Shown here: positions 7,597-40,276 of the stretch, in pieces | Layout: every line of letters starts with the position of its first letter | Position numbering within the stretch: position 1 is the stretch's first letter | Virus record (IMG/VR): IMGVR_UViG_3300032011_004028 | Location: 1 to 64,000 of that record | Source: a virus | Lineage: Duplodnaviria; Caudoviricetes | DNA: 64,000 nucleotides | Reading direction: 5' to 3' (one strand) | Notes under the pieces: model-generated | What the model was told of the DNA's origin: nothing | Database searches by the model: none | Seen by the model: only the letters and a program-made list of their open reading frames with translations | Position numbers and translations under genes: made by a program

Positions 7597-7600
7597 TTAT

Positions 7601-7678
7601 TTAATAAAGTTTTCTTAACTGTTTGTTCATCTTGGAAAGGGGGGGTTGTATTGAGCCGCTATCCAGTATCTGATTCAT
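7601..7678 (-). CDS. 25-aa mini-ORF starting inside the left 43-bp repeat (possible relic or coupling peptide)
   Basis: MNQILDSGSIQPPLSKMNKQLRKLY*; its stop is 4 nt upstream of the fcl ATG. Confidence 0.25.
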   Translation of the reverse strand: MNQILDSGSIQPPLSKMNKQLRKLY

Positions 7679-7712
7679 TTCTTAATATTTTGCAAAACTC
7701 CTCTTTATTTCT
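7670..7712. repeat. 43-bp direct repeat, copy A
   Basis: ctgattcatttcttaatattttgcaaaactcctctttatttct; 42/43 identical to 11544-11586. Confidence 0.9.
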
Positions 7713-7766
7713 AATCTTTTTGGAAGATATTTAATGAGCCCACCAAAACATCAGCAATTTCTTGAT

Positions 7767-10055: not shown

Positions 10056-10059
10056 AATT

Positions 10060-10878: not shown

Positions 10879-10880
10879 CT

Positions 10881-13567: not shown

Positions 13568-13569
13568 GA

Positions 13570-14709: not shown

Positions 14710-14713
14710 TATA

Positions 14714-15532
14714 TTACCAATAGCATCCGTTTTCTACGAGAGATTGATTTTCTGGAGTTTCTTCTTTTGACGGGCGAATCCAGCTGTCATTAATAAACTT
14801 AGATATATCCTCGTGATCATCCCATCTGGCGCCCTTTATTCCGAATAAAATTTGCGTGCCTCCTCCCATGTGAATCCCCGAAATCCCCTTTGTTTTTAAT
14901 TTATGAATAAGGGGCAGTGCAAAAGCCCCCGCTCCCACAATCACAATATCGGGATCAAAATCGACACATTTATTATATAGGTCGTCTAACGCCTCAAACC
15001 AATCACTATACTCACTCTTTCTCATGCTGTGAAAAGGAGATTTCACCACGGAAAGGTTGAAGGCGGGAAGAGTATTTTTACTTCCCCACACCTTATCTCT
15101 TCGCTCGTACTGAGACAAGACGCTTTTATCAAATGGAGTCACAACAGTAACAGACTTGCCTTCTAGGGCCGTACTCCATCCTTCTTCAAAGTAGTAAGGT
15201 TCTAAAGACCTCATGGGACAAGTAGAAAAATTTGAATTGCCCAGCGAAACAAATTCTTCATCTCTGTCTATCCAGCTTGCGAGAATATCCAAGCTTGAAG
15301 TAGATTCAATGTAGAGATCCAAAAAAGAATTCAATACATCGGTTTGGTCGGGGAAAACTCCAGCATTCACGGTAAGTAGCTGTCGAATATGAGGGGGGAA
15401 AGGGACTTTCGCTAATTTAACCTGTACTCCGAGAAATTCTGACATTCCCAATTTCCCTGCCGAAAAAACTTCACCGGAAAGAATTTTATTTTTTACAACA
15501 AGGTTTCCTTTTAGTTGTCCTGCGTCACTCAT
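14714..15532 (-). CDS. Hypothetical glycan-island protein (possibly GT-D fold)
   Basis: 272-aa ORF; IVIVGAGAFALPL...GIHMGG; island context. Confidence 0.45.
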   Translation of the reverse strand: MSDAGQLKGNLVVKNKILSGEVFSAGKLGMSEFLGVQVKLAKVPFPPHIRQLLTVNAGVFPDQTDVLNSFLDLYIESTSSLDILASWIDRDEEFVSLGNSNFSTCPMRSLEPYYFEEGWSTALEGKSVTVVTPFDKSVLSQYERRDKVWGSKNTLPAFNLSVVKSPFHSMRKSEYSDWFEALDDLYNKCVDFDPDIVIVGAGAFALPLIHKLKTKGISGIHMGGGTQILFGIKGARWDDHEDISKFINDSWIRPSKEETPENQSLVENGCYW

Positions 15533-16412
15533 TATTTATTTGCTGCCGCTCTTTGTTGATTCTTTCTCTTAGAGGCTTGAGGTCCTCCTCTATAGCTTCT
15601 GGATGCTTCCCTTCGAAGGGTTTTGTAAAGCATTCCCCTCTTACTTCAGGCTTAAATTCGTGAACCCCGTGGTATACCTGTTCTATTATACTCCTTTCTT
15701 CCGGTAAATGAGCGTTTATCCAAGGTAAATAAATTTTTTCAAAATAATTGTCAATACAGTTTTCTTTACTGACTTTAGCTTTATAGTATTGTATTTTATT
15801 GTAAACCTGAAGAGGAAAAGTATAAGAGTAATGGTACATTTGCACCCCTGTCAAAGCTAAGAAAAATTCGCTATCTATATGCTTTTCTTCTATAGGGGTC
15901 GAGTGACCCATTGTCGGTGGGCGGTGGGTCAACCATTTACTGCCCGGGGTTACTTTAAAAATCCTCAAAAAGTTATCCTTATTAAGTTCAAACCCAGTTA
16001 AATAATCATCAAACCCTCCAAAAAAAGAACAGCTTCTTACTCCAACACTTGTAGGCTGTACCTCTTTAAGAAAGTTAATAGTGGATTCAATGTCATCGGT
16101 TTTGTAAATCTCGTCACTGTCAACCATCCATAAAAAGTCAGTGTCAGGGGCCAAGTTCTGCATATAAGCGTTGCACTGCTCATCTTTCCCTGAGTATTGA
16201 CCATGGGTCACTATAATCTTATTATCGGGATCGGGAAAGTTCTTAAGAATAGAGTTAGTTTTATCCGTGGAGGTTGTTCTTCCTTGATCTTGCCAATATT
16301 TTACCGGTCCTTCGGCAATTAAAATTTGAGAGGCAAAAGGATAGATTTGTTTTAAACATTGTTGAAGGACGAAATCGCCCTCAAAAACAATCATAGCAAA
16401 GGCAATCTTCAT
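15525..16412 (-). CDS. GT2-like glycosyltransferase
   Basis: FAMIVFEG...ILIAEG, WMVDSDE, MYHYSY. Confidence 0.65.
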   Translation of the reverse strand: MKIAFAMIVFEGDFVLQQCLKQIYPFASQILIAEGPVKYWQDQGRTTSTDKTNSILKNFPDPDNKIIVTHGQYSGKDEQCNAYMQNLAPDTDFLWMVDSDEIYKTDDIESTINFLKEVQPTSVGVRSCSFFGGFDDYLTGFELNKDNFLRIFKVTPGSKWLTHRPPTMGHSTPIEEKHIDSEFFLALTGVQMYHYSYTFPLQVYNKIQYYKAKVSKENCIDNYFEKIYLPWINAHLPEERSIIEQVYHGVHEFKPEVRGECFTKPFEGKHPEAIEEDLKPLRERINKERQQINNE

Positions 16413-17278
16413 TTTTTATAATAAGGTTTAATTTTGGAGAGGTAGTCCATATAAAAATGCCTAACGACAGGCATTTTAAATATTTCAAAATTAAAAGTAT
16501 GATCGGCGTACCATCCTGATGTAGGGCTTATATCACCTGTTTTTTCATCGATTGACAAACGGGAGAAATGGTTAAAAACTAAAGGCTGTTCTTTATCGCC
16601 CCATATAATAGTACCTTTAGAGGGGTAAGTGTCATAACAATAAAGCCTAAAGTTCCAAGGGGCTCCGTGGGCAAAAGTTTTGTCTAGAATAGCTACCGAG
16701 TCGCCATATATTTTAGGAAATTCTTCAAGATATTTTTGGTCACCAATAGTGGCTAAGTCGGGCCTCTTTTCTAATAACATTGTCTCATTCCACCATCTAG
16801 CGCATGACTTACCGTCTTCATCATTGTTAAAATAAACTATGCCTACGTTAAACTCTCCATCAGGAGAAAGAGAAGTATTGTGACGGTGACGTATTATTCC
16901 TATACTAGAATCTTTTATTTCATCATATACTATTTGGATGTCTTGATAAAAAAGAATATCCGAATCAATATAAAGAATATGCGATGTTTCTTCTTTTTCT
17001 AAAAGATGACGACAGAAAGTTGAAGCGAGGGACCAGCAGTACTCGTTATACGGTTTCTTTTTTTTATAGTTGACAGAGAGTGGGTTAAAATCTTCTACTT
17101 CAGAAAGTTTTATCCTTTGAACTGAAGCTTCATTTTCTAACGCATTAAAAGATTCGTCATCAAGGCATAAGAAAAATAGGGTGAATTCAGAAGAGGTGGT
17201 AGATCTTAGGGAGTCTAAAAGAGCTCTGCCGAAAGGTAAATATTTCTTATCAACTATAGTGCAAAAAAATTTATTCAT
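16409..17278 (-). CDS. GT-A (GT8-like) glycosyltransferase
   Basis: LYIDSDILF, FNVGIVYF, GDQKYLE, APWN, FNHFS. Confidence 0.75.
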   Translation of the reverse strand: MNKFFCTIVDKKYLPFGRALLDSLRSTTSSEFTLFFLCLDDESFNALENEASVQRIKLSEVEDFNPLSVNYKKKKPYNEYCWSLASTFCRHLLEKEETSHILYIDSDILFYQDIQIVYDEIKDSSIGIIRHRHNTSLSPDGEFNVGIVYFNNDEDGKSCARWWNETMLLEKRPDLATIGDQKYLEEFPKIYGDSVAILDKTFAHGAPWNFRLYCYDTYPSKGTIIWGDKEQPLVFNHFSRLSIDEKTGDISPTSGWYADHTFNFEIFKMPVVRHFYMDYLSKIKPYYKK

Positions 17279-18182
17279 TTGTAAAATTAAAAAGCTGCCC
17301 GGCTTTTGATGGCTCCCAGCTTAAAGTGTCTCTTATTTTTTTTGAAGAAATCTTGTAGCGTAAATCTTGACCAAGACGATTCTCAATAAACTGTATATGG
17401 TTTTCGTAGTCAGATATATCAAACCATCCACAAACTTCTTTAACTACTTCTATGTTATTAAGATGGTGGTAGGCTGATATATTCCAAATATTATTAATCT
17501 GTTCAGAGAAGCAAACTTTGTAGATAGCCGCCGCATTATCCTCTACGTATAACCAGTCCCTATAGTATAGGCCATCTCCATGCATGGGTATCTTGGATTT
17601 TTCTGTAATAGATTTTATTATCCGGGGTATGAGTTTTTCAGGGTATTGTCGCGGCCCATAATTATTACTGCTTCTTGTTATTTGATAATCTATACCATAC
17701 GTTCTTCCCCAAGCTAGAACTAACATATCGGCCGCTGCTTTACTGGCCGCGTAAGGGTTGCTTGGTGTTAATACGTCATCTTCAGTTCTGCCTAATACTT
17801 CTGAATCGTAATCTCCATAAACTTCATCCGTACTTACATGCACAAAAAGAGGCCTGTCATAAGGCTTCCCTCGGAGAAGATTTAGTAAGTTCAATGTTCC
17901 CTTAACGTTTGTTTCTACGAAAACATTTGGCGACGCTATAGCGTTATCCACGTGGCTCTCGGCTGCAAAATTAACTATGATATCGCATAGAGGTAGATGA
18001 TCTATGTCTTTTATATCTTTTTCAATAAAAGTATAATTAGGGTGGTCATCCCAAGGAAGAGATCTACTAGCCGCGTAAGTAAGTTTATCAACATCAATAA
18101 CGCTGTGGCCGTTTTTGAGGCAGAGTTCGACAAAATAACTACCGATAAAACCTCTGCCACCTGTAACTAGAAAAGTTTTCAT
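17271..18182 (-). CDS. rmlB: dTDP-glucose 4,6-dehydratase
   Basis: VTGGRGFIGS, DKLTYA, NFAAESHVD, HVSTDEVYGD, PSNPYAASKA, NNYGPRQYPEKLIP. Confidence 0.95.
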   Translation of the reverse strand: MKTFLVTGGRGFIGSYFVELCLKNGHSVIDVDKLTYAASRSLPWDDHPNYTFIEKDIKDIDHLPLCDIIVNFAAESHVDNAIASPNVFVETNVKGTLNLLNLLRGKPYDRPLFVHVSTDEVYGDYDSEVLGRTEDDVLTPSNPYAASKAAADMLVLAWGRTYGIDYQITRSSNNYGPRQYPEKLIPRIIKSITEKSKIPMHGDGLYYRDWLYVEDNAAAIYKVCFSEQINNIWNISAYHHLNNIEVVKEVCGWFDISDYENHIQFIENRLGQDLRYKISSKKIRDTLSWEPSKAGQLFNFTNE

Positions 18183-18197
18183 TTGTAATAAATCTTT

Positions 18198-18926
18198 CTA
18201 CATGTTCCTTTCATGAAACTTGCGCCTAACTTCTTCTTCTTCCTTAGCTTTCCATTCGTTGGTTTCTTTATTGGTAGACATACCAGCCGGGTTCATGTAA
18301 TAAAGACCTAGTGGAGCGTTAATTTTTCCAAATTTAGCTCCGTTCTCTAAAAAGCGCAACCACATATCTAGGTCTCCTGCTGATTTATACTTGTGGCTAA
18401 ACATGCCACTCTTTTCGTGAAGACTTTTCTTCCAAAGGGGATTATTGTGGGGGGCTCCTCGGTTTAGAATTGCATCCAAAGAGGCATCAGGTGGAGAAGG
18501 GTATACTCCTATAGCTGTGTTATTTTCAAAGGTTTCGTTGGGCGACTGCGTAACTAAAATGTCTCCATATATTACATCAGCTTTAGAGTTGTCCTCCATT
18601 ACTTTTAAATGTATCTCTAAGGACTTAACGCTCTTCCGGTCATCAACATTAGCATTAGTGAGAAACTGTCCTCGAGACATTTCTATCGCAGTGTTCCAGC
18701 AAGCGTAAATACCGGGGTCTTTATCTAATCTAGAATAAACAATATTCGGATATTTTTTTTGATATTCTAGAATAATATCCTTTTCATTATCTGGGGAATT
18801 AGCATCTACGATTATTAACTCACACTTTTCTTCAAAGATGGTTTGGTTGACTATGTCTTCCAAGAAGCCTTTAATATAAGCTCCCCCTTTGTAAAGGGAA
18901 GTTATTATAGAAATTTTAGGATTCAT
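18198..18926 (-). CDS. GT2 glycosyltransferase
   Basis: ISIITSLY, LIIVDANSPD, GIYACWN, NANVDD, GDLDMWLR. Confidence 0.85.
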   Translation of the reverse strand: MNPKISIITSLYKGGAYIKGFLEDIVNQTIFEEKCELIIVDANSPDNEKDIILEYQKKYPNIVYSRLDKDPGIYACWNTAIEMSRGQFLTNANVDDRKSVKSLEIHLKVMEDNSKADVIYGDILVTQSPNETFENNTAIGVYPSPPDASLDAILNRGAPHNNPLWKKSLHEKSGMFSHKYKSAGDLDMWLRFLENGAKFGKINAPLGLYYMNPAGMSTNKETNEWKAKEEEEVRRKFHERNM

Positions 18927-19770
18927 TTCTTCTTATTTCACTAATGAAATCAGCAAAAGTTTCTCTTTTGAGTCTCATTTTGTTTATCAAATCTTTTCCG
19001 CTAAGAGTGTACCAATCTTCATAAGAAGCCCCTATTAATTCATTTGTCACCACTTCCACGTTCATCATTTTAGCTTCAAGTACGAGCCTGCAGCAAGTTT
19101 CGGGCGTTGTAGGATGGAATACTAGCTTTGAGTAGCTGGACAACTTATTTAAAAAAGATTTATAATCGGGATCTTTAATAATGTCAAAGTTCCACTGTTT
19201 ATCTTTACAGAATTGAGCTGAAGCTTGGGTGCCTTTTTGGGGGTATGGAGATTCTATTACGACGGACCGATCATTTTTCTCCTTATCGCAATGGCTCTCT
19301 AGTAGGTCTAGACTCTCTTCAGACCAGAGATTGCCGGAAAAATTGACAGTTTTAAGTGGGCGCTCAAGATTTCTATCATAAATATCTTTTTGAAATTGAG
19401 TCTGGCAGATAATCCTATGAGCGTTCCAGTGAAAATCTACATTAATCAATTCATTTGGGGAAACGTGAAAATTAGGATAAAGGGCTGGGTTAGTATGCTG
19501 GACGAACTTGTAATCGTGACAGTAAAGAATATATTTGCAGTTTTTCTGTATCAGGTCTCTTAACTCGGGATTAACCCCGAAAAAGTTGGATATTATAAAA
19601 AAAGAATCGAGGTTCTCTTGGATGAACCCCTCGTACAGATAGCGACTTTTTATTTTGTAAACATCAAAGCGTTTCGATAAGAGCTTGAATATCTCCTCGT
19701 CGTTTAAAGCTGCGCCACCTACGAAATCATCGATAAAAAAGTCACTAACTAATATAATCTTGTCATTCAA
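18916..19770 (-). CDS. Putative GT-B glycosyltransferase
   Basis: FVGGAALND, YCHDY, PETCCRLVLEAKMM (ExxxxxxxE). Confidence 0.6.
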   Translation of the reverse strand: MNDKIILVSDFFIDDFVGGAALNDEEIFKLLSKRFDVYKIKSRYLYEGFIQENLDSFFIISNFFGVNPELRDLIQKNCKYILYCHDYKFVQHTNPALYPNFHVSPNELINVDFHWNAHRIICQTQFQKDIYDRNLERPLKTVNFSGNLWSEESLDLLESHCDKEKNDRSVVIESPYPQKGTQASAQFCKDKQWNFDIIKDPDYKSFLNKLSSYSKLVFHPTTPETCCRLVLEAKMMNVEVVTNELIGASYEDWYTLSGKDLINKMRLKRETFADFISEIRRNES

Positions 19771-20107
19771 ATTTACTTGGGTCTTTAGGGTGTTTTTTTC
19801 CCTTTCGTCTTTCAGCGTAGTCTTTGAAGTATTGCTGTTGGACGGGGTCTCTCCCTTCTTTATCTTTCCTTTTCTCAGAAAGCTCTTTGGAGCGATCCCA
19901 CATTTCTCCTACGTTCTGGACTTTCGCTTTTTCCCTGAAATCTTTAGCTGAATAAGGGTCTATTTTGGTGTCTATGGAAGCCTGAGGGATAGTGTAAACA
20001 CGATTATAAGTAATATCATCAACTTGGTAAACGTGCTCTTCATGAATACTCTGCCAAACAGTTATCTGTTCGCCACTGTCAGGATGTTCATAGATGTATT
20101 CAGGCAT
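19763..20107 (-). CDS. Hypothetical (FmdB-like N-terminus without Cys)
   Basis: MPEYIYEHPDSGEQITVWQSI pattern. Confidence 0.5.
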   Translation of the reverse strand: MPEYIYEHPDSGEQITVWQSIHEEHVYQVDDITYNRVYTIPQASIDTKIDPYSAKDFREKAKVQNVGEMWDRSKELSEKRKDKEGRDPVQQQYFKDYAERRKGKKHPKDPSKFE

Positions 20108-21188
20108 TAACTATCTTAGTTATTTGGTCGACGGTGTTGCTATAAGGGAACTGTTCTTGAAGGTTTAATCCTTCAGTGTTTACGGGAGATTCTTTGTATC
20201 TTTCCACGGCTTTCTCGCATCCTTCTATAAAAGCATCTTCGTTGAAATCATAAATCTGGCCTTGGTTGAAGGGGTTTCCTTTTTTAAAGAATATTCCGTC
20301 TTCAGAGTCTATTTTTCCACTAGGCTCCACCAAAATAGCATTTTCTGGCGTCGCCCAATCTTTATAAGAGGTGGTATTAAGTATTACGCCGTGCTTACCC
20401 AGCGCTATAGATTGAAATTCAGGCAGCCCCCATCCTTCGGCTCCCGACATTCCTAGAATTATATTTCCAGAATTTAAGAAGTCGTTGTAAAGGCTATTTT
20501 TTTGCATCATTCCTAGAAAATTGATATTAAAGTAGTTTTTACCTTCCAGTATTTGACTTATGCGAGCTTTAAATTCGTCCTCTTTCATGAAGGGGTTAGC
20601 GATGGCACACTGGAGAACGTAATCTTTATTGTTTCCGTATTTTTTAAGCCAAGCCTTAATTACTTTAGCGTGATGCTTCCTTTTCTCGAGCTTGCCTGTA
20701 ATGTTAAAAACTATCTTTCCTTCAAGATATTTTTCATTTTTTACATTAAAATTATATTTATCGAATCCGAGTGGCACGTAATGACAATTTTCTAAGCCGT
20801 GCTCTTCGAGAATGTTTTTGGCATAATTAGAACTAACAATTAAGTTCTTCTGGTTTCGCGCTATATTTATTTCGTAGCTGGTAGGGTGATCAAGTTCATA
20901 AAAGGTAAATAGTGTTTGATCTTTTCCGTAAGATGTTAAGCTTTCGTGGTTTAGATGCCACAGTTTAAAAATAGGAGTATCTCTATTGTACTCTTCAAAA
21001 GATTTTTTAATGCAAGACTCTATCCACTTGTTGAAGTCTTCATCTACTTCTTGAGAGCTTAAATCGGATTGACCTACTGTAAATAAAGAAGGCTGCACGC
21101 CCCTCTGGTGAAATTCACGCAGAAGGGCTGTGCTAACCTGACCAAAACTTACACCGTTAAGTGGTAGATGTAAGGCGAAGTCGGACAT
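20100..21188 (-). CDS. GT4-like glycosyltransferase
   Basis: YVPLGFD, FNITGKLEKRKH, EGWGLPEFQSIALGK. Confidence 0.8.
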   Translation of the reverse strand: MSDFALHLPLNGVSFGQVSTALLREFHQRGVQPSLFTVGQSDLSSQEVDEDFNKWIESCIKKSFEEYNRDTPIFKLWHLNHESLTSYGKDQTLFTFYELDHPTSYEINIARNQKNLIVSSNYAKNILEEHGLENCHYVPLGFDKYNFNVKNEKYLEGKIVFNITGKLEKRKHHAKVIKAWLKKYGNNKDYVLQCAIANPFMKEDEFKARISQILEGKNYFNINFLGMMQKNSLYNDFLNSGNIILGMSGAEGWGLPEFQSIALGKHGVILNTTSYKDWATPENAILVEPSGKIDSEDGIFFKKGNPFNQGQIYDFNEDAFIEGCEKAVERYKESPVNTEGLNLQEQFPYSNTVDQITKIVNA

Positions 21189-21493
21189 TAAAACTCCAGT
21201 GATTCGCTAGTGGCACTAGCCTGTGCGGCTGGTGCAGAAGCGTTAGTGTTTTGTTTGCCCTCTTCGCGGCCCTCGCTCATATACAAGCGAAAATCGGGAG
21301 CCTTGTCGTTAGCAACGCTTCCGTCTTCATTGTATTTGTGTTTGTTTTTGAAGACGACCAACTGAACCTTACCTGACGCGTCTTTTAATTCGACGTGACC
21401 TGTCATGTATTGAGTTCCAGTTAGGCTCTTCTTTACCCATAGAGCACCTAATTCGCGCTCCTTCCAGTCGTTGTTCTTTTGTTCTTCAGACAT
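21188..21493 (-). CDS. DUF736-like small protein (possible ssDNA binding)
   Basis: LGALWVKKS...YMTGHVEL...VFKN...DKAPDFRLY. Confidence 0.5.
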   Translation of the reverse strand: MSEEQKNNDWKERELGALWVKKSLTGTQYMTGHVELKDASGKVQLVVFKNKHKYNEDGSVANDKAPDFRLYMSEGREEGKQNTNASAPAAQASATSESLEF

Positions 21494-21503
21494 AAGAGTC
21501 TTT

Positions 21504-21532
21504 ATATTATAGAGGGCGGGTCACGTTGTCAA
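21504..21532 (-). promoter_or_regulatory. Sigma70-type promoter heading the glycan island
   Basis: Minus strand TTGACA-N17-TAATAT (or N15-TATAAT), ending 11-13 nt before the ATG at 21493. Confidence 0.7.
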
Positions 21533-21540
21533 CACTTTTT

Positions 21541-22143
21541 TTAAATAGAATCGAGAAATTTTTCGCTTCCTATTTTTTTTCTTAATACCGCTAGCCCTCT
21601 ATTGTGCAGATTGATTGCGGTTTGAGTGCTGATCTCTAAGTTTTGAGCTATTTTAGCCCACGAGGGTTTTTTGGTGACATTCGAATACCTTAGAGAGAAT
21701 ATTTTTTTTATCCGAGTGTCTCTTAGTTGGGCAAGAATATTACCTGTGAATTCAAATAGGTCCTCAGTGGGGGCATCTCCTTCTTTTTCTTTTAAGGCGT
21801 CTAGTATTTCGTCCTCTGTGCTTACTAAACGGTCTTTAACTTTTTTATTTATGGAATTTAAGCAAAAATATTTAATTTGATTAGCTAGCCACGTCGAAAA
21901 TTTTACGTTTTTATGAATACTGAAACTTTTTGCTGAATTCCAGATAATTAAATTTTTATCCATAGAAGTTTCGTTTATGTCGATGTTGTTGGCATAAAAA
22001 CTACTGGAATATTTTTTTAATATCTTAAAACAGAGGGGGGAGTGCCTCTTGATAAGCTCAGTGAGGCTTCTTTCGCAGTTATTTAAGCGAATTCTTTCTA
22101 CTAAATAGTTGTCGCTTACCTTATCCCAGCAGCTTTCTTCCAT
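21541..22143 (-). CDS. Phage RNA polymerase sigma factor (regions 2 and 4)
   Basis: LIKRHSPLCFKI, KFSTWLANQIKY, C-terminal HTH SWAKIAQNLEISTQTAINLHNRGL. Confidence 0.75.
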   Translation of the reverse strand: MEESCWDKVSDNYLVERIRLNNCERSLTELIKRHSPLCFKILKKYSSSFYANNIDINETSMDKNLIIWNSAKSFSIHKNVKFSTWLANQIKYFCLNSINKKVKDRLVSTEDEILDALKEKEGDAPTEDLFEFTGNILAQLRDTRIKKIFSLRYSNVTKKPSWAKIAQNLEISTQTAINLHNRGLAVLRKKIGSEKFLDSI

Positions 22144-22559
22144 AATTCTATCTTAACCGTAAAGTCCTCGAAAGAACAGTCCTTATCTCTTTCTAAGTCA
22201 AGAACATAACGACGATGCCTCTTAAACATACGTGGTAAAATTATAAAGTATTCGATCATATCGTCAAAATTATTTTCTAAAAAAATATTTGCATCCCTAA
22301 AATCTGTCTCGTTAGGGTCGTCAGATTTAACGGAAGTTTGAATCAAGAAAGCATAATTAAGCTCCAAGTTATCAGAGAATAACATACTGTCAAAGCGACA
22401 TATACTGACGTCATAAGCGTAAACTGCGTCTATTTTGCTGAATTTTAAATGATGAAATTGAGATAGATTTTCCGAAGTTAACAAAAGGTTAGCTCCTCTT
22501 CCTGAATAAGCTACCATGGGACGGCATTGCTTCTGCGCAATGGAAGAATCTTCAAACAT
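22116..22559 (-). CDS. Hypothetical protein
   Basis: 147-aa ORF overlapping both neighbours in the operon. Confidence 0.55.
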   Translation of the reverse strand: MFEDSSIAQKQCRPMVAYSGRGANLLLTSENLSQFHHLKFSKIDAVYAYDVSICRFDSMLFSDNLELNYAFLIQTSVKSDDPNETDFRDANIFLENNFDDMIEYFIILPRMFKRHRRYVLDLERDKDCSFEDFTVKIELWKKAAGIR

Positions 22560-23145
22560 ATAACTTCTTTACCCATTTTAATAATTTTTGGGCTGAAATT
22601 ATTTTTTTTACGTCTTCTTTCTCTGTTCTCCAGTTCAGTTTAAAGTCAGCGACCTCCTTTACTAAGGGGTCGTTAATCGTTTCCGTATCGTTTGCTGGGG
22701 GCATGTAAATACGCTTCCCTCCCACTTCATCATACCGAGAAACGTGAATCAAAACCCCGTTTATTTCTTCTTTTAACCAAAAAACTTCATCTTTCTCGTA
22801 TTTGTTAAATCTGATGTCAGTTATAATATTTATTTTTTCGGGGGCTAATTCTTTAGATATTTGATCTATCCAGTGTCTACCGTTTGATAAATCTCTTTTT
22901 ATTTCTCCATGAGATACGAGAAAAGGCCGTATCGTATTCTTTTCGTCCCGGGTACAGTCAGTAGAATCTATTCCATAAAGTTCACGGGAAACGCATGATA
23001 CTTCCTTTTTTAAGTTCTTAGCAATTGAAAGCTCCCTGTACGGGAGCTCCATTCTTTGCAATAATTTAATTATTATCTCAGCAACCGTATTCTTCCCACA
23101 ACCGGCTACTCCCCCTATTCCTATGTTCTTAAACTTGTAGTTCAT
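22552..23145 (-). CDS. Deoxynucleoside monophosphate kinase-like
   Basis: P-loop IGIGGVAGCGKNT, HWID, IITDIRFN. Confidence 0.8.
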   Translation of the reverse strand: MNYKFKNIGIGGVAGCGKNTVAEIIIKLLQRMELPYRELSIAKNLKKEVSCVSRELYGIDSTDCTRDEKNTIRPFLVSHGEIKRDLSNGRHWIDQISKELAPEKINIITDIRFNKYEKDEVFWLKEEINGVLIHVSRYDEVGGKRIYMPPANDTETINDPLVKEVADFKLNWRTEKEDVKKIISAQKLLKWVKKLYV

Positions 23146-26140: not shown

Positions 26141-28555
26141 ATGGAAATAAAAGTAAAAAAAAGAAACGGAAAACTAGAACAATTCGACGTAGAAAAGATA
26201 AATAAATGCGTTTATCGTGCTTGCGCAGGTATTGACGGAAACAACGTGTCAGCCAGCGAGGTCATTCTCGACGCTCAATTACAACTTTACGACAAAATCA
26301 CAACTAAGGAGATTGATGAAGCTCTGATTCTGTCAGCTCGCGCTAAGATAGAAAAAGAGCCCAACTACAGCAATGTCGCGTCAGCTTTGGCGGTAAACGC
26401 TCTTTACAAGGAAGTTTTTAGAGAAAGCGTCGACTCCGACACCTTCGACCTGCAATACAAAAAATCTTTTGTTCAAGGTGTCAAGAAGCTAGTAAAGAAC
26501 GAGATCTTAAATGAAAAACTTTTAGATTACGACCTTAAGAAACTATCTGAAGCTATTGCGCCAGAAAGAGATAAGAAATTTAAATATCTTGGATTACAAA
26601 TTTTAATAGATAGATATTTCATCCGCACTAATAATAAAATAATTGAATCGCCTCAAGCGTTCTGGATGAGAATAGCAATGGGGTTAGCTTTAAATGAAGA
26701 AAACAAAGAAGAAAGAGCAATTGAGTTCTACAACCTATTTAGCAATCTGCTATACACTCCTTCCACTCCTACATTATTCAATAGCGGAACTACTCACTCA
26801 CAACTAAGTTCATGTTACCTAAATACATTTGATGACAGCATTGACGGAATATTCGAAGGGGTCTGGCAAGAAGCCAGAAAAAGTAAGTACGCTGGAGGTC
26901 TTGGCTTTGACGTTACTAATTTTCGTGCTTCTGGGGCTTATATCAAAGGCACAAACGGGATTTCTGGAGGCCTTGTGCCATGGCTCAAAATCCTCAACGA
27001 CACACTTGTCGCGGTAAACCAAGGCGGAAAAAGGCCCGGAGCTGGATGCGCCTATCTGGAGCCTTGGCATTTAGACTTTGAAGACTTTTTAAACCTCCGG
27101 AGGAACACTGGGGACGAAAGGTTACGTTGCCATGACATGAATACCGCATCATGGGTTCCTGACCTTTTTATGAAAAGGGTTCAAGAAGATGGAGATTGGT
27201 ACATGTTTTGCCCATCAGACTCTAGAGATTTGCATGAAGCTTTCGGCGATTGCTTTACGGCCGTCTATGAACAAATGGTAGATAGAGCTGAAGCAGGAGA
27301 ACTTAAAAATTTCCGTAAGGTAAAAGCAAAAGACCTGTGGAAGAAGATGTTGAAAGTTTTATTTGAAACGTCGCATCCTTGGGTGACCTTTAAAGACCCC
27401 TCTAATATTAGATACAGTAATCAACACCAAGGAACAGTCCACTCAAGTAATCTGTGCACTGAAATTCTTTTGCATACTAAACCGTCCAAATATAAAGACG
27501 GGGAAAAAGTAGAAATAGGAGAAACTGCTGTCTGTAATCTTGGTAGCGTCAATTTGAAAAACCACCTTACTGATGATGGCTTAAATAGGGATTTATTAGC
27601 GTCTACAATTAAGACTGCTATTAGACTTCTGGATAATGTAATTGATTTAAATTTTTACCCAACCAAGGAAGCCGAAAACGCTAACCTCCAACATCGACCA
27701 ATCGGACTAGGTATGATGGCGACTCATGACGTTCTACAAATTCTGGATATACAGTACGATTCAGATAAAGCTGTAAAATTTATTGATGAGCTAACTGAAT
27801 TCTTTTCTTATAACGCGATCCTGTCTTCTAGTGAATTAGCGAAGGAAAGAGGAAGTTATAAAACTTACGCAGGTTCTTTGTGGGAAAAAGGGCAATTGCC
27901 AATCGATACCTACAATGCCCTCTTAGATTTTAGAAAAAAAACTCCAAAGACACCCGTGCGGGGAAAACTTGATTGGAAAAAAGTAAGAGAACACATTTTA
28001 AAATATGGAATCAGAAATAGTAACACTATGGCAATTGCTCCTACTGCCACTATTGGTTATATTAACGGTGTGGAGCAGAGCATCGAACCGAACTTCTCGG
28101 TGATGTTCGTGTACGAATGTAAGAGTGGAAACTTTTACGTTGTTAATGAGCAGTTTGTAAACGATATGAAGAAGGAAGGGTTATGGAGCCCTCAACTTGC
28201 AGAAGCGGTTAAGGAAGTTGACGGTGATGTCATGCTTCTTGATATTCCGGAAAAGTATCGTGAAAAATATAAGACTGCTTTTGATCGCGATATGTTTAAG
28301 CTAATTGAATGTAATGCGGCTCGCCAGAAATGGATTGACCAAGGCATATCTTTTAACCTGTACAACAAGGGGACGAGTCTTAAATACTTGAACGATATTT
28401 ATATGGCCGCGTGGGAAGCCGGATTAAAAACTACCTATTACTTACGTAACAGGGGGGCATCTAAGGTTGAGAAATCAACTAAAAAAGAATATACCGAAGA
28501 AGAACAAATAGCATGCTCTATCGCCAACCCTGAAGCGTGTGAGGCTTGTCAGTAA
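26141..28555 (+). CDS. nrdA: Class Ia ribonucleotide reductase alpha subunit with ATP cone
   Basis: VKKRNG ATP cone, PSTPTLFNSG, SSCYL, SSNLCTEI, VCNLGS, IAPTATI, LKTTYYLR, C-terminal CxxC. Confidence 0.97.
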   Translation: MEIKVKKRNGKLEQFDVEKINKCVYRACAGIDGNNVSASEVILDAQLQLYDKITTKEIDEALILSARAKIEKEPNYSNVASALAVNALYKEVFRESVDSDTFDLQYKKSFVQGVKKLVKNEILNEKLLDYDLKKLSEAIAPERDKKFKYLGLQILIDRYFIRTNNKIIESPQAFWMRIAMGLALNEENKEERAIEFYNLFSNLLYTPSTPTLFNSGTTHSQLSSCYLNTFDDSIDGIFEGVWQEARKSKYAGGLGFDVTNFRASGAYIKGTNGISGGLVPWLKILNDTLVAVNQGGKRPGAGCAYLEPWHLDFEDFLNLRRNTGDERLRCHDMNTASWVPDLFMKRVQEDGDWYMFCPSDSRDLHEAFGDCFTAVYEQMVDRAEAGELKNFRKVKAKDLWKKMLKVLFETSHPWVTFKDPSNIRYSNQHQGTVHSSNLCTEILLHTKPSKYKDGEKVEIGETAVCNLGSVNLKNHLTDDGLNRDLLASTIKTAIRLLDNVIDLNFYPTKEAENANLQHRPIGLGMMATHDVLQILDIQYDSDKAVKFIDELTEFFSYNAILSSSELAKERGSYKTYAGSLWEKGQLPIDTYNALLDFRKKTPKTPVRGKLDWKKVREHILKYGIRNSNTMAIAPTATIGYINGVEQSIEPNFSVMFVYECKSGNFYVVNEQFVNDMKKEGLWSPQLAEAVKEVDGDVMLLDIPEKYREKYKTAFDRDMFKLIECNAARQKWIDQGISFNLYNKGTSLKYLNDIYMAAWEAGLKTTYYLRNRGASKVEKSTKKEYTEEEQIACSIANPEACEACQ

Positions 28556-29322
28556 TGGATTATTCTAAAGTAAATATATTCTACCCGGTTATTGGTTATA
28601 CGGGAATGGTTCATTCGGACTATATGATGAGCACTATCGATCTAATGTCCGTGTGCCGACAGCAAGGAGTAAAGATAGGACTGCGCTCTATATGGTTTGA
28701 AAGCTTAATAAGCAGGGCGCGAAACGCCTCGGTAGCTTTTATGCTAAACAAGGACTACTCTCATTTATTATTTATAGATACGGATACCCAGTTTTCTGCG
28801 TTTGACGTAATGAAGCTTATCGATGCGGACCAAGACGTAACAGTGGGGGTTTATCCGAAGAAGTACTTTAATGGCCAAAAAATAGAAGCAATGGCTTCTA
28901 CAGGTAAAATGCCCGAACACTGGAGACATTTAGCCACGGATTTTTCGACGGAGATAGAAAATGAAGAGTTAAAGAAAGCTAAAAAGCAAGATATAGTGCA
29001 AGCCAACTACGCAGCCACGGGCTTTATGTTAATAAAACGTGAATGCATAGAAAAAATAATCGCTGCTAAGCCGGAAATAAAATACGTCAATGATATTGAT
29101 GGCTATATGCAAGCTGGGGATAATTTTTATGATATCTTTCGCTGCGAAGTGAACCCCAAAACAAAGAAGTACGAAAGTGAAGATTATGGTTTCTGCAAGC
29201 TGTGGAAATCTTTAGGTGGAGAAATAAATGTCGTGACCGACATAAGTCTAGGTCACAGAGGGTTCAACACTTATATGGGAAATTTAAAACTACAATCACA
29301 TTACTATACGTCAAATGAGTGA
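28555..29322 (+). CDS. GT-A fold glycosyltransferase-like protein between nrdA and nrdB
   Basis: ESLISRARN, LLFIDTD, GVYPKK, ATGFMLIKR, SEDYGFC. Confidence 0.65.
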   Translation: MDYSKVNIFYPVIGYTGMVHSDYMMSTIDLMSVCRQQGVKIGLRSIWFESLISRARNASVAFMLNKDYSHLLFIDTDTQFSAFDVMKLIDADQDVTVGVYPKKYFNGQKIEAMASTGKMPEHWRHLATDFSTEIENEELKKAKKQDIVQANYAATGFMLIKRECIEKIIAAKPEIKYVNDIDGYMQAGDNFYDIFRCEVNPKTKKYESEDYGFCKLWKSLGGEINVVTDISLGHRGFNTYMGNLKLQSHYYTSNE

Positions 29323-30544: not shown

Positions 30545-30725
30545 ATTTGAAAGGACTAAACCCACGGAAACTTACAAAGCTATCATAAAGGCAAAGGATA
30601 AGTATGAGACTTTACTTAAAGAAACCGTGATTATGGAAGATACAGATGCCGTCCGAGTGGAGATGGCTAGAGTTTTCTTAAGAGATTTAAAAGAAATTTT
30701 TCTAAAATTCAAATCTGGCAAATAA
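30531..30725 (+). CDS. Hypothetical protein
   Basis: 64-aa ORF overlapping the previous one. Confidence 0.55.
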   Translation: MNLSEFERTKPTETYKAIIKAKDKYETLLKETVIMEDTDAVRVEMARVFLRDLKEIFLKFKSGK

Positions 30726-30743
30726 TATTGTGTAACAATATAC

Positions 30744-31358
30744 ATGGCTAGTATAGCAGATCAATTCAAAGGACTCCCTATTGGGACACTCATCGCGGAA
30801 CCATTGCTTGGAGCGGCAAAAGCACAGGGTCAACTCGCTCACACGACAGAAAATTTTATAAAAGATATCGGGCTGCAAGACGACGGCAAAGGTAATCTTA
30901 GCGCACGTACCGTAGAATTTGATTATGATGCCCCAGTTGAATCTAAAGATGCAAAAGGAGCCTTAACGACAACAATCGAAAACCGTAAACTCAAAGTCCC
31001 CCTTCTCTCTATTATACAAACGCCTAACCTAGGTGTTAAAAAAGCCACCGTTGACTTCGACATGGAGGTTAAATCCAGCACTCAGGACACTAGCTCTGTT
31101 GATACTAAAACCGACCTTAGTGTCAAATATGACAACTGGTGGTCTCCTGTTAAAGTAGATTTAACCGCTTCCGTATCCACGAAAAGCGAAAACATTCGCA
31201 AGACTGATAACTCCGCCAAATATACAGTTCACGTAGAAGCGCGGGATGACGGGGCTCCAGAGGGGCTTATGAAAGTTCTTGACATTCTTGGAGCAGCTAT
31301 TCAGCCTGTTCCTGCTGGCGGAGGAAGCAACACTCCCGCCACGCCGCCTAGTAATTAA
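30744..31358 (+). CDS. DUF2589-like protein A (with Ser/Thr-rich beta-hairpin insert)
   Basis: QFKGLPIGTLIAEPLLGAAKAQ, VPLLSIIQTPNLGVKKATVDFDMEV, PEGLMKVLDIL. Confidence 0.75.
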   Translation: MASIADQFKGLPIGTLIAEPLLGAAKAQGQLAHTTENFIKDIGLQDDGKGNLSARTVEFDYDAPVESKDAKGALTTTIENRKLKVPLLSIIQTPNLGVKKATVDFDMEVKSSTQDTSSVDTKTDLSVKYDNWWSPVKVDLTASVSTKSENIRKTDNSAKYTVHVEARDDGAPEGLMKVLDILGAAIQPVPAGGGSNTPATPPSN

Positions 31359-31834
31359 TGGCTGACGATAAACTACCTTATTCAAAATCTGGATCATTTA
31401 GAGGTGCTCCGGCGCTAAAGACGTTCGATCACCTTATCCAATGTCTCTATAACTCTGTAGTTTATGCTCAACGTTATGTGGAAACTGAGCATTTAAAGCG
31501 GGTTATAGGGACGTATTTTGACGACCACGGACGTCCAGTAACCAAAAAGATAATCTTACCCACTACAGAGGGGGAACAGGAGGTGGAAATACCCATCATG
31601 ACCCTTGCTGGGCACAACCACTTAAAGATAGATAGTTTAGATATGGAGTTTGAAGTGGATTTGGGTCAATTTGAGAACTCAGATAACCATCAAAAAAGAA
31701 GAATGATAGCTATGATAGGGAGAAAAGACCCAAAAAATACCCTCGCTAAAGTTAAGCTTACAATTAAAAACGGCGACACCCCTGAAGGGATAGCTCGAAT
31801 AAACGATAAAATTGTAAAAACCATCCCTAGTTAA
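31358..31834 (+). CDS. DUF2589-like protein B (paralog of A)
   Basis: IPIMTLAGHNHLKIDSLDMEFEV, TPEGIARIND; TAATG overlap with A. Confidence 0.7.
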   Translation: MADDKLPYSKSGSFRGAPALKTFDHLIQCLYNSVVYAQRYVETEHLKRVIGTYFDDHGRPVTKKIILPTTEGEQEVEIPIMTLAGHNHLKIDSLDMEFEVDLGQFENSDNHQKRRMIAMIGRKDPKNTLAKVKLTIKNGDTPEGIARINDKIVKTIPS

Positions 31835-31846
31835 TATAATAAAAAT

Positions 31847-32083
31847 ATGGCCAGTGGTTATTTAAGATTAATGTTGGATTCAGCTCGTCGTTGCGCCTCG
31901 GCTACTCAAGACGCAGCAGAAGATGCTCGAAAAGCCTCGGAAGAAGCTAGGCACGAAGCTCAGGAGATTGATCAAATGGCTCAAGATGCAGCGTCTAAAG
32001 CTGTAGAAGCCAGTGAAAGAGTCAAAGTCCTTGAGGCTAAAGTGCTTAAACATGACAATATGGGCGATGAACCCAACACCTAA
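31847..32083 (+). CDS. Ala-rich coiled-coil small protein
   Basis: DAAEDARKASEEARHEA...AQDAASKAVEAS. Confidence 0.6.
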   Translation: MASGYLRLMLDSARRCASATQDAAEDARKASEEARHEAQEIDQMAQDAASKAVEASERVKVLEAKVLKHDNMGDEPNT

Positions 32084-32642
32084 TCTCGTTAACGACATCC
32101 CAATTACTTGCGATGGGTTTGCCCACGTTAGCTGTATAGTAGAAATCCCGAAAGGGACAAATACCAAATACGAATACAACGAGGAATATAATATTTTTGA
32201 ATTAAATAGATGCCTTGTATCATCTTTGCAGTATCCCATCAATTACGGCTTTATAAGCCAAACTTTCGCATTAGATAGGGACCCTCTAGACGTGCTTATT
32301 TTTAACCACGATCCTATAGACAGGGGAAGTTTGGTTAGGTGTAGAGTTTTGGGGGTGTTAGATTTTGTTGACAATGATGAAATAGATTATAAAGTCATAG
32401 CGGTTCCTCACTGGACGCCTAAAAGTCGCTACCCTCGCTTAAACTCTATTGAAGCGGAGCACCTTAAGATATTTAAACAGTTCTTTAGGATTTACAAAAT
32501 AGATCGCTCTGACAGCGTGAAAGTAGGAGAATGGAAGAACGGCCGGGCTGCAAGCAAGGTAGTCTCCGAGGCTCACAATCGGTGGTCTTTAAAAAAATAC
32601 GAAGAAACAAGAAAGGAAACGGAAAGACATGGGAATGTTTGA
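32067..32642 (+). CDS. ppa: Family I inorganic pyrophosphatase
   Basis: VEIPKG..KYE, YPINYGFI, DRDPLDV, DYKVIAV. Confidence 0.92.
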   Translation: MNPTPNLVNDIPITCDGFAHVSCIVEIPKGTNTKYEYNEEYNIFELNRCLVSSLQYPINYGFISQTFALDRDPLDVLIFNHDPIDRGSLVRCRVLGVLDFVDNDEIDYKVIAVPHWTPKSRYPRLNSIEAEHLKIFKQFFRIYKIDRSDSVKVGEWKNGRAASKVVSEAHNRWSLKKYEETRKETERHGNV

Positions 32643-37638: not shown

Positions 37639-38505
37639 TTATCCTTGGAACGTAGTGCTCCCCATTCCGACATTCCCTCCCGCTGAATTAAACAGGATCA
37701 CCGGATTTACTATTTTTATTTGACTATCATTTTGGATAACGTTAATGCTTTGCTTAATATAAGCTCCCGCAGCAGAAGCTAAATTGCGAGATTGCATAAC
37801 TCCCGAACATGAAAAAACATCTAAATTGGTAAAGTCATTGACCGCTCCTCCTCTTAATTTAACTTCTATTTTAGCCTCACTTCCGTCAACGGGGAGATTC
37901 CCAGTCGGGTTATCTACTTCAAAATTCATGCTTGTAGTTTTTTTACCAAAGCTAATACTACTAGGTTTAGTTTCCCCCATTAAATAAACAGGAGCTACTT
38001 CCGAACTATAATTATACCCCCCCGCAATAAAATTGTTTATTATGTCTGTCTCAAAGTCTGAAGTTACCGCAATTCTGGAAGTGTTCAATACGGTAGCCGC
38101 TTGGGCTTGCTCCTCTGTGGGCGTAAACGTTCCTTGGAGATCGTCAAAAAAAGCAATAGACACACTCGCTGTGACCGGGGAATTAGGCGAAAAGTCGACG
38201 TTATAGGAAGTCAAATATCCACTATCAAAATTCAACCCCCCAAAGTTTCCAGAGATGGTTTGGCTGGCGCTTTGAGGAATTTCCCCTTGCCCAGTGATAA
38301 AAGATTTAAAATAATCATTCCCCGTTAAAAAATAATTGAACTGCAGTGACCCCGCAATACCGTTAGACGCTGCATAAAAGTTAGTGTTTCTATCCCCTAT
38401 TACATAATTAGCCTCAAGAGAAGCACTTAAAGAAAGAGAAGCATTAGAGGCTAGTATTTCTGTCCCATTGATTTTAAGAGTGGCGTTGTTTGCGGAATAT
38501 AGCAC
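37639..38505 (-). CDS. Tail-tube-like paralog 1 (tandem tube fold)
   Basis: Similar by eye to 38507-39403, 39434-40276 and the major tail protein; GYLTSYNVDF. Confidence 0.6.
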   Translation of the reverse strand: MLYSANNATLKINGTEILASNASLSLSASLEANYVIGDRNTNFYAASNGIAGSLQFNYFLTGNDYFKSFITGQGEIPQSASQTISGNFGGLNFDSGYLTSYNVDFSPNSPVTASVSIAFFDDLQGTFTPTEEQAQAATVLNTSRIAVTSDFETDIINNFIAGGYNYSSEVAPVYLMGETKPSSISFGKKTTSMNFEVDNPTGNLPVDGSEAKIEVKLRGGAVNDFTNLDVFSCSGVMQSRNLASAAGAYIKQSINVIQNDSQIKIVNPVILFNSAGGNVGMGSTTFQG

Positions 38506-38506
38506 A

Positions 38507-39403
38507 TTAATAAGCTGCTGTTAAAGTTTTTTGGCTTCGGATTATATCGTCCAGCCCCGCCGTAGCTGATGTAGAAACCTGTACGCCACTTATCATCTTG
38601 ACCTCCATTTGTTGAAGAGCGTTACCGTCCACACTTCTTAACTCTATTAAATAATCTGCGGGAACTCCTGTGTATGCCAGCCCCGAATTAAATATATCCT
38701 CCGCAACGTTTACAGATTCGGAAGCGTTGGTATAAAGAGTTAACTCTGGAAATTCTTGCCCTACCCTGTATATAGGATTGTGACTAAAAGAGATAGAATA
38801 GTCGGCAGAATAAACTACCCCTGCTTGATTCCCCCCTCCTGCAGCTGGCGCGTTAATAGTGGTTTGAAGTCCCTCCACATTTATATATCTACCATGGGCA
38901 ACTCCGGTTGCTACCGCGACCCCTCCGGGATTTGATAAGTTCACAGTGTCCCCGCTAAGCCGACCACTGATAGGAAGACCCTGATGACCATCCCCGTCTA
39001 TACCTCCAAAAAAACTAAATGAAGCGCTAGAAGTAGATACGGAATTACTTGCCGTGTTAAAAGCATAAGAGTTTAAAAATCCAATACCGCTTACCCCCGC
39101 GCATTTGACAATAATACCGGAACCCGTAGACCCAATAGAATGCTTTAGACCACTTGCAAGATAGTTTATGACGTTACCTGCATGACCATGTGTAGAGCCT
39201 GTTATACTAGTGAGGAAATTAAAAGATATATCACCCGCTCGTGGTCCTGCTGGCACGTGGCCTAGGCTCCCTTTATTTCCTATCACATAGAGAGGTTGCA
39301 GAGAATTATTGAAGTTTATACTACAATCCGACGCTAAAAGGGTTTCACTCACCCCCGCAACCGTGACTTCTACCGCCGCCTTATCATAAAATACCTGTGC
39401 CAT
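38507..39403 (-). CDS. Tail-tube-like paralog 2
   Basis: LQPLYVIG, GFLNSYAF, HNPIYRVG. Confidence 0.6.
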   Translation of the reverse strand: MAQVFYDKAAVEVTVAGVSETLLASDCSINFNNSLQPLYVIGNKGSLGHVPAGPRAGDISFNFLTSITGSTHGHAGNVINYLASGLKHSIGSTGSGIIVKCAGVSGIGFLNSYAFNTASNSVSTSSASFSFFGGIDGDGHQGLPISGRLSGDTVNLSNPGGVAVATGVAHGRYINVEGLQTTINAPAAGGGNQAGVVYSADYSISFSHNPIYRVGQEFPELTLYTNASESVNVAEDIFNSGLAYTGVPADYLIELRSVDGNALQQMEVKMISGVQVSTSATAGLDDIIRSQKTLTAAY

Positions 39404-39433
39404 ATCCTTTAGTAGTTAGTTATTACACTCTTT

Positions 39434-40276
39434 TCACCTCAAAATGAAAGATCTTAAGTTAAAATTAACCCCCGCATTGCCTTGGTCGCTAGCTTGGAAA
39501 GACTCCGAGGTTAAAAGCATATCATCAAAAGAGTACTCTAATAATTTAGTCTGAGAGTTGTTTTTATTCAAAGTTATTTTAGTATTCTTGAAAACTGTTT
39601 CTTCAGGAACAAACCTCATATTTTTAATCTCGTAGTCATCTACATCTAATACGAAATTCACATTTACCTCCACAGGAGTGCCCGCTATCACTCCCGTCGG
39701 GACATCCAAGCCCACAGCATAGAGAGGAACCCGAGGGGTAGCTATTTCAATACTGAAAGAAAGCATCCTATTAGTATTGAATTCACCCAAATTCACTTCC
39801 ATTGAATTGTAACTGGGGATACTCAGGACCGGCTCCGTTGGACTTCCCTGCTCCCAAGACGAAACGTAATTTCCTGTACCCATTTGTCCATAAATAACGG
39901 AGGTGGTTGATGTACTCGGTACCTCCCCGATACCGCATGACATAGTGTAGGTCTCCAAATAAGCTTCCGTAAAGTCGATTCTCTCACTTCCATACCTTAC
40001 TATTCCACTAAAAGATAAATCTCCGGTAAAATTCAGTAGCGGGTCAGAGGCCGTTATGTCACTATAATTTTCTGGATAATAGTGAGTAAGAAGCGTATTC
40101 AGCTGCAAACTTGCCGTCTGGGGGCCTTGAGGAGCGTATTTTATGCTATTTATACCTAAATTAGAGAGCGGAGATCCAGCTACTGAGTCATAACTTAACT
40201 GAGCAGAGGTTAAACTCTGTATCCCCGTGCCGTTAATAGTAACGTTCTCCGCATTTCGCCTAATTCTTCCTAACAT
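39434..40276 (-). CDS. Tail-tube-like paralog 3
   Basis: AYLETYTMS, RVPLYAVG, LLTSESF. Confidence 0.6.
   Translation of the reverse strand: MLGRIRRNAENVTINGTGIQSLTSAQLSYDSVAGSPLSNLGINSIKYAPQGPQTASLQLNTLLTHYYPENYSDITASDPLLNFTGDLSFSGIVRYGSERIDFTEAYLETYTMSCGIGEVPSTSTTSVIYGQMGTGNYVSSWEQGSPTEPVLSIPSYNSMEVNLGEFNTNRMLSFSIEIATPRVPLYAVGLDVPTGVIAGTPVEVNVNFVLDVDDYEIKNMRFVPEETVFKNTKITLNKNNSQTKLLEYSFDDMLLTSESFQASDQGNAGVNFNLRSFILR

Follow-up and report, generated by a model that had tools for sequence, protein, structure and literature searches.

We analysed a 64,000-nucleotide (nt) stretch of the IMG/VR virus record IMGVR_UViG_3300032011_004028 (positions 1 to 64,000; hereafter the window), part of the large genome of an uncultured marine tailed phage, and focused on two adjacent genes of the DUF2589 family, A and B, together with the small gene C that follows them. 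On the plus strand, the gene order is nrdA, a glycosyltransferase-like open reading frame (ORF), nrdB, two ORFs of 63-64 amino acids (aa), A, B, C and an inorganic pyrophosphatase. The features concerned are the following:

30730-30735, plus strand: GTGTAA core, 8 nt upstream of the ATG of A; candidate phage promoter element.
30744-31358, plus strand: protein A, 204 aa; DUF2589 protein bearing the hairpin.
31071-31214, plus strand: hairpin of A, residues 110-157; predicted amphipathic, Ser/Thr-rich beta-hairpin with a WWSP tip.
31358-31834, plus strand: protein B, 158 aa; diverged DUF2589 paralogue whose loop at the position of the hairpin is short and charged.
31847-32083, plus strand: protein C, 78 aa; Ala-rich coiled-coil protein; the last bases of its gene overlap the likely start of the pyrophosphatase gene (32067).

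A gap of 18 nt separates A from the ORF that precedes it. At the TAATG junction between A and B, the TAA stop of A and the ATG of B overlap by 1 nt, and the ORFs are as described in an earlier reading of the bare sequence (the initial annotation), which had called the two genes translationally coupled. The pyrophosphatase (32067-32642, plus strand; Pfam E 1.5e-43) is in turn translationally coupled behind A-B-C. Its start is probably at 32067, overlapping the end of C, because the Pfam match begins 41 residues into a long ORF.

Comparison with the Pfam model PF11655 (DUF2589; gathering threshold 23 bits) places both proteins above the threshold, in agreement with the initial annotation, which had called them DUF2589-like. 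More specifically, A matches with 117.8 bits (E 7e-34) over positions 1-152 of the 154 in the model, and B with 57.7 bits (E 2.2e-15) over positions 2-153. Pairwise BLASTP sees no relationship between A and B (E 37). Profile-profile alignment with hhalign, using an A family profile of 107 sequences and a B-type profile of 31 sequences, gives a probability of 97.8% (E 1.2e-12, 149 columns, 13% identity) and pairs VPLLSI.. with IPIMTL.. and APEGL with TPEGI, the very motifs from which a shared core had first been proposed. On the evidence of these profiles, A and B are homologous, as old and distant paralogues. Motifs present in the pair comprise an N-terminal FxGLP..LI..PL.AA..AQ helix, a VPLL strand, FDMEV, ENTRxTDNSAKY and PEGL..VLD.

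The family is large. A sequence search returned 973 homologues of A, and the search for DUF2589 as a whole returned 2,133 clusters at 50% identity among 1.84 billion representatives. Close relatives of the window are viral contigs of 144 and 170 kb, the latter complete by CheckV, in which protein A is 91-95% identical; IMG/VR classes the 144-kb relative (G002) as a provirus, which, if correct, points to a possibly temperate phage group. Identity of A is 58-66% between unlike phages and 37-49% to bacterial homologues. Among cultured phages, blastn found no relatives and tblastn found one faecal phage fragment, 28% identical. PHROGs, PADLOC and NCBIfam hold no family for A or B, and the full texts searched mention DUF2589 only incidentally and PF11655 not at all. 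Across the family, only prolines are invariant and the sole nearly invariant polar residue is Glu173; with no catalytic signature, an enzymatic function is therefore unlikely, and the pattern fits a structural or oligomeric role. DUF2589 forms of 349-409 aa carry only coiled-coil extensions, C-terminal in the long bacterial forms, and no Pfam domain. No fused forms of 717 aa and up were found, which is weak evidence.

Among 29 phage homologues that are 57-91% identical, the hairpin of A does not vary at its WWSPV tip or in the flanking motifs (Y129, W133-S-P-V, A142-S143, K147, R152 and D155-N-S-A). The corresponding stretch, between FDMEV and SAKY, is present in all 107 diverse family members, where it measures 39-62 aa and contains 35% Ser+Thr. 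Per-column hydropathy in the two commonest length classes reads pHpHpHpHpH, a GWG(G/P)F tip, then HpHpHp.pH, that is, about ten strictly alternating residues per strand (five hydrophobic positions each) around an aromatic tip of the GWGxF or WWSP type. Measured against shuffles, the period-2 amphipathic moment has a z of 2.5 for A and a median z of 1.86 for the family. A polar linker of about 12 Ser, Thr and acidic residues precedes the hairpin, and a conserved polar segment, ENTRSTDNSAKY, follows it. The loop of B is about 20 aa shorter, charge-rich and non-alternating.

The initial annotation had described this Ser/Thr-rich, alternating stretch with its WW tip correctly, and conservation of the pattern in homologues, whose absence it had named among the findings that would refute its pore idea, was found in the phage and in the family-wide set alike. 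Its further claim, that the stretch is an insert peculiar to A, is ruled out: the stretch is family-wide and B is the deviant member. In the aerolysin and alpha-hemolysin families, beta pore stems are alternating amphipathic hairpins. Judged by sequence pattern, the hairpin of A is of this stem type, which makes it a candidate membrane-inserting or inter-subunit element.

An AlphaFold2 (AF2) model of A was built on the 107-sequence diverse alignment; the 29 close homologues gave a predicted local distance difference test score (pLDDT) of only 39. The model has a pLDDT of 73.9 and a predicted template modelling score (pTM) of 0.57, with core blocks mostly above 90. It consists of an N-terminal helix (residues 13-43), four strands (56-68, 74-86, 97-108 and 157-167) and a C-terminal helix (173-186), after which comes a variable Pro/Gly/Ser tail. 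In this model, the hairpin would start from, and return to, two central strands of the core sheet. Residues 112-153 of the hairpin have a pLDDT below 50 beside the confident core, as expected of a segment that folds only on assembly. No transmembrane (TM) segment is present in A, B or C (no 19-residue window has a Kyte-Doolittle mean of 1.6 or more), and neither A nor B has a signal peptide, the N-terminus of A being a conserved amphipathic helix. The two proteins are therefore not secreted toxins.

Next, we compared the surroundings of the pair in viruses. DUF2589 relatives are encoded on 342 IMG/VR contigs, from which a neighbourhood set of 80 loci, plus the window, was drawn (81 sets). A occurs in 79 and B in 78 of these, B always together with A; the two are adjacent on one strand in 60 (35 in the order B-A and 25 in the order A-B) and adjacent on opposite strands in four, including the inspected giant-virus metagenome-assembled genome (GVMAG) loci L122 and L127. 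The genes flanking the pair differ completely among phage groups, and the pair shows no link to head or tail genes; it therefore behaves as a self-contained module. The proposal of a two-component system is borne out to this extent, as a conserved two-gene module found in both orders and between unrelated flanks. On the giant-virus side, A-type genes lie on GVMAG contigs L122, L123, L125 and L127, a B-type gene of 304-312 aa stands beside A on the opposite strand in L122 and L127, and the scanned neighbours of these loci include nucleocytoplasmic large DNA virus (NCLDV) capsid and EsV-1-7 families.

The commonest neighbour of the viral pair is a cluster found in 36-38 loci in three gene arrangements. 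Its longest member contains a PG_binding_1 domain (E 5e-22), and it matches a PHROG endolysin family (E 1.6e-14). It lacks a signal peptide. Behind it are encoded two coiled-coil proteins, the first of them with one TM segment, and a Pro/Glu-rich protein with a signal anchor. From its sequences, this group looks like an ordinary lysis cassette ending tail-to-tail against A. In some other phage groups, a zinc-ribbon-like protein of 75-79 aa (CxxC...CxxC) is encoded directly upstream of B-A (L121:5158-5394, and L139; cluster c15); by sequence, it is absent from the window.

The family is also found in bacteria of many phyla, and DUF2589-related genes AF0414-0417 are known in the archaeon Archaeoglobus fulgidus (PMC3949148). 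A third protein (S) of about 90 aa accompanies A and B in 60 of 61 bacterial loci. In a sample of one locus from each of 31 bacterial genera, A and B co-occur in all 31, and the genes follow the order B-A-S or A-S-B without exception. The third protein has no match in Pfam, PDB or PADLOC, and a hidden Markov model (HMM) of 60 such proteins found none (best E 3.1) when run against six-frame translations of the window and six related phage loci. The 108 flanking ORFs from the 31 genera contain GH108, GH25, Pesticin, VgrG3-like_C, PG_binding_1 (three) and PG_binding_3 (two) domains, as well as Peptidase_C58 (two), Patatin, and regulators of the LuxR and AraC types. Our impression is that wall-active enzymes are enriched near the bacterial pairs, an impression without a matched control and not a statistic. 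The window thus shares with DUF2589 cassettes elsewhere a hairpin-bearing and a hairpin-poor paralogue that are adjacent and co-directional. It differs from the bacterial cassettes in having no ~90-aa third protein, and from some other phage groups in having no zinc-ribbon gene upstream; instead, it has a lineage-specific coiled-coil ORF downstream and a nucleotide-metabolism setting.

The ORF that follows the pair, noted initially as Ala-rich and coiled-coil, holds up as a gene. C reaches 22.6 bits against Alanine_zipper (cut-off 23.1), and its variable sites among relatives fall 25/8/65 on the three codon positions; since they concentrate at third positions, C is a real coding gene. It occurs only in the 18 closest viral loci and is therefore not a core part of the module; C is a lineage-specific accessory gene.

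Upstream of A, the GTGTAA core is kept in all close relatives while the neighbouring bases vary. Elsewhere in the window, four ORF starts, one at 33177 (plus strand) and three at 39403, 40276 and 58349 (all minus strand), have AGTGTAAT 14-30 nt upstream, and this motif precedes tail genes; a related motif, CGTGTAAT, precedes the start at 40338 (plus strand). The window holds seven motifs against 5.0 expected, which is not above chance, so that their placement alone is telling. The copy in front of A deviates (TGTGTAAC); at 8 nt from the ATG it falls inside the 18-nt gap and leaves no room for a ribosome-binding site. GTGTAA is plausibly a phage promoter or start signal. Of the late-type promoter first proposed, the position and the conserved core stand; the copy of A is deviant, and 'late', a label drawn only from the genes that the motif accompanies, is no firmer than plausible. 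A 7-bp palindrome around GTGTAA (30725-30741) was rejected as a conserved element, its right arm not being kept in relatives. Three tandem ORFs of 280-298 aa at 37639-40276 (minus strand), each after or near an AGTGTAA(T/A) motif, have no Pfam matches, and likewise the 1,189-aa ORF that adjoins them.

We propose that A and B are the two components of a soluble module that is produced in the cytoplasm and acts from inside to perforate or destabilise a lipid membrane, and we put the probability of this reading at roughly 0.4. The reading is based on three observations: the stem-like hairpin is conserved family-wide, the pair is a unit, and wall-cutting enzymes and toxins lie near it elsewhere. 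The range of the family over bacteria, archaea, tailed phages and giant viruses suggests the lipid bilayer as a common target. Under this proposal, A would oligomerise. Its hairpin of about 48 residues, disordered in the monomer, would in the oligomer prolong two central strands of the core sheet and combine with neighbouring hairpins to build a beta-barrel or beta-sheet; this would penetrate the bilayer, anchored by the WW tip. B would not insert itself but would nucleate, cap or restrain A, and the coiled-coil protein C would be a local accessory. The module would come into play as infection ends, depolarising or breaching the inner membrane and so helping a lysin equipped with an export signal of its own; some other membrane event is the alternative. 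Possible, though on balance doubtful, is the bolder version in which A/B are an unrecognised class of perforators with a single hairpin partner, acting from the cytoplasmic side in bacteria, archaea, tailed phages and giant viruses alike, and in this phage serving as a pinholin-like trigger of the lysin without a TM helix.

Several known systems open membranes in ways that can be compared with this proposal. Gasdermins are soluble cytoplasmic proteins whose beta-hairpins, extended from the core sheet, enter the inner membrane from inside, and they come closest to the mechanism suggested for A/B in all three respects (soluble, cytoplasmic, hairpins extending a core sheet). However, the fold searches gave no structural match to them, the pair has no adjacent protease or C-terminal inhibitory peptide, and a paralogous partner stands in place of a possible regulator. 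With the beta pore-forming toxins, A shares a Ser/Thr-rich amphipathic hairpin with an aromatic tip and polar flanks, potentially long enough to cross a bilayer, and the existence of two related components. Unlike them, A has a core of two long helices on a four-stranded sheet and not an all-beta body, no fold or sequence similarity to them was found, and A/B have no secretion signal, whereas the toxins act from outside the target cell. In the bicomponent leukocidins, both components give stems, whereas here A alone has the hairpin. The hetero-oligomeric beta-pore built by both partners, as first suggested, is in consequence unlikely in the form of a leukocidin-style shared barrel, B having no comparable hairpin.

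Lysis cassettes of the holin-endolysin-spanin type and their domestication for type 10 secretion have been reviewed (PMC9527704), and a type 10 secretion system (T10SS) of Yersinia entomophaga is described in PMC10847048. Common to these systems and our proposal is an opening of the inner membrane from the cytoplasmic side, and relatives of the pair adjoin signal-less wall enzymes and, in bacteria, toxins and dedicated regulators. In this phage, however, no lysin adjoins the pair. Holins are small, poorly conserved proteins with one or more TM helices, whereas A, B and C have none and A is highly conserved. None of the tests run places A/B in the aerolysin, leukocidin, gasdermin or holin families.

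We then considered what weighs against a membrane-perforating module, starting with the lysis genes of this lineage. The window contains no endolysin family among the 25 commonest of the 39 Pfam families matched, no tblastn match to the lysin of its relatives and no small TM protein, and the initial remark that no holin or endolysin is visible in it is upheld on these counts. In the two near-complete relatives, Amidase_2, Phage_lysozyme, PG_binding_1, Peptidase_M15_4, SLT and the lysin-like viral neighbour gave no match, nor did GH108, whose control also failed to register. The only lysin family found is Hydrolase_2, with one match in each of the two relatives (E 6e-16). Its product is a SleB-like protein of 171 aa (L168:1492-2007, minus strand, equivalent to about 113.9-114.2 kb of G001, the complete relative), with no obvious holin beside it. 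In this 170-kb relative, the gene lies about 67 kb from the A/B pair. The protein begins with a hydrophobic segment, LIISVCLLPVVFQLFLIVNSVYAYA, which by its sequence is a signal peptide or signal-anchor-release domain, that is, an export signal of its own. Secreted and signal-anchor-release lysins reach the periplasm unaided and need only depolarisation of the membrane to act. In this phage, the pair is thus neither beside the lysin nor needed for its export.

Further points tell in the same direction. In this lineage, the pair is surrounded not by a lysis cassette but by a string of closely packed nucleotide-metabolism genes that all run in one direction. It is not simply a holin, because phages in which it adjoins a lysin have small TM proteins of ordinary appearance there as well. 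By sequence comparison, the conservation of A is far above that of holins. In the phage clade, the hairpin bears strong charge (D/K) on its polar face, and an amphipathic hairpin is equally expected when packed on a core or lining a tube. Finally, no solved structure resembles the model of A as a whole: the best Foldseek match in the PDB has E 0.48, and VIA-align against 48,161 chains reached a best Z of 4.0, on the N-terminal helix alone; a second look at the fold was equally without a match. Profile searches of PDB sequences gave no match either, and the single significant match in BFVD is a viral homologue (E 1.7e-10, 37% identity). A likeness in fold to the aerolysin-type or bicomponent toxins, with which the hairpin had initially been compared, finds no support in these PDB comparisons. 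A role in lysis or at the envelope, also proposed at the outset, fares unevenly: wall-hydrolase neighbours elsewhere speak for it, and the metabolic string and the distant lysin of this lineage against it.

Of the other explanations, the one that survives best is that A and B are building blocks of an assembly that involves no membrane (a tube, sheet, filament or virion decoration), the hairpin providing inter-subunit beta-augmentation as in rings of the tail-tube/Hcp type and B a minor cap or adaptor. Very high conservation in a small protein without catalytic residues would suit such a role, and hetero-oligomeric assemblies are typically encoded by pairs or larger clusters of paralogues. AF2 leaves the hairpin of the monomer unmodelled, the long bacterial forms end in a coiled coil, the GTGTAA-type motif upstream is like those before tail genes, and tail-tube chains appear on the list of weak, non-significant Foldseek matches to the model (E 1-4). 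We nevertheless consider it unlikely. The fold has no significant match to tube or sheath proteins, and five alternating hydrophobic residues per strand with an aromatic tip are unusual for hairpins lining a lumen. Moreover, the bacterial chromosomal modules stand beside LuxR/AraC regulators and lytic or toxic enzymes and not in phage structural operons, and the phage pair shifts among unrelated neighbourhoods with no tie to head or tail genes.

Somewhat less probable again is that the pair is a helper of export or release, similar to type 10 secretion, which passes signal-less cargo such as lysins and toxins over the inner membrane and is not a lethal trigger, its cargo in this phage possibly lying elsewhere. 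The variety of bacterial neighbours (GH108, GH25, Pesticin, VgrG3-like_C, Peptidase_C58, Patatin), the dedicated LuxR and AraC regulators of the bacterial cassettes and the signal-less lysin-like gene that adjoins the pair in many phages are all in keeping with this idea. It is, however, a sub-case of the membrane-perforating reading and needs the same hypothetical membrane activity; the neighbours here are a pyrophosphatase, ribonucleotide reductase (RNR) genes and small ORFs, with no cargo gene beside the pair, and the lysin of this lineage has its own export segment. Least probable, and in our view remote, is a function in host take-over, superinfection exclusion or counter-defence, for which the pair would be switched on together with the nucleotide-metabolism genes of the early or middle phase and would target a host protein or the membrane potential rather than lysis: the place of the pair inside a tight, same-strand RNR-pyrophosphatase string, 18 nt after the preceding ORF, its distance from the lysin and its occurrence in different accessory regions of different phages would fit, but no PADLOC defence model or PHROG family is matched, the conserved GTGTAA core is similar to the motif that precedes tail genes, and many bacteria have this module on their chromosomes with regulators of their own, which does not point to an anti-defence gene.

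The rest of the window is that of a large tailed phage. It codes for a DnaB-like helicase, RecA, a dUTPase, a class I RNR and a tubulin-like protein. Its lambda-type tail genes comprise tail L, tail M, a JAB-domain protein and a 2,257-aa protein with a GpJ domain; a match to a minor-tail-protein family probably belongs to the 2,311-aa ORF. Around the pair, a 258-aa ORF without a Pfam match (28546-29322, plus strand) lies between nrdA and nrdB, overlaps both and is kept in close relatives (cluster c10, 19 loci), and a 169-aa ORF that overlaps the end of the pyrophosphatase gene recurs close to the DUF2589 genes in a second group of phages (cluster c13; L107, L109 and L114). A 428-aa ORF at 1502-2785 (minus strand) has the tubulin signature GGGTGAG at residue 181, and one ORF of the window matches Pfam Tubulin/FtsZ (E 2e-12); judging from these sequences, a tubulin-like protein seems to be encoded by a phage that has lambda-type tail genes and a genome of about 170 kb. 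The long block at 3494-23145 (minus strand) has Pfam matches, assigned to the block as a whole and not to single ORFs, to GDP-mannose dehydratase and epimerase types (three), glycosyltransferases, a DegT-type aminotransferase and nucleotidyl transferases. It would be a sugar-nucleotide or glycan biosynthesis set, large for a phage.

DUF2589 is a large and strongly conserved family of bacteria, archaea, phages and giant viruses with no matched structure. The window shows that its A/B pair can stand alone, with neither the third protein of the bacterial loci nor a zinc-ribbon partner, at a distance from the lysin and within a metabolic string, and it therefore constrains models tied strictly to lysis cassettes. 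If the hairpin protein does form a pore from inside, the pair would represent a new route of lysis or protein release beside holins and gasdermins. It would then also explain gene pairs present in hundreds of uncultured marine phages and offer a compact two-gene tool for controlled membrane opening.

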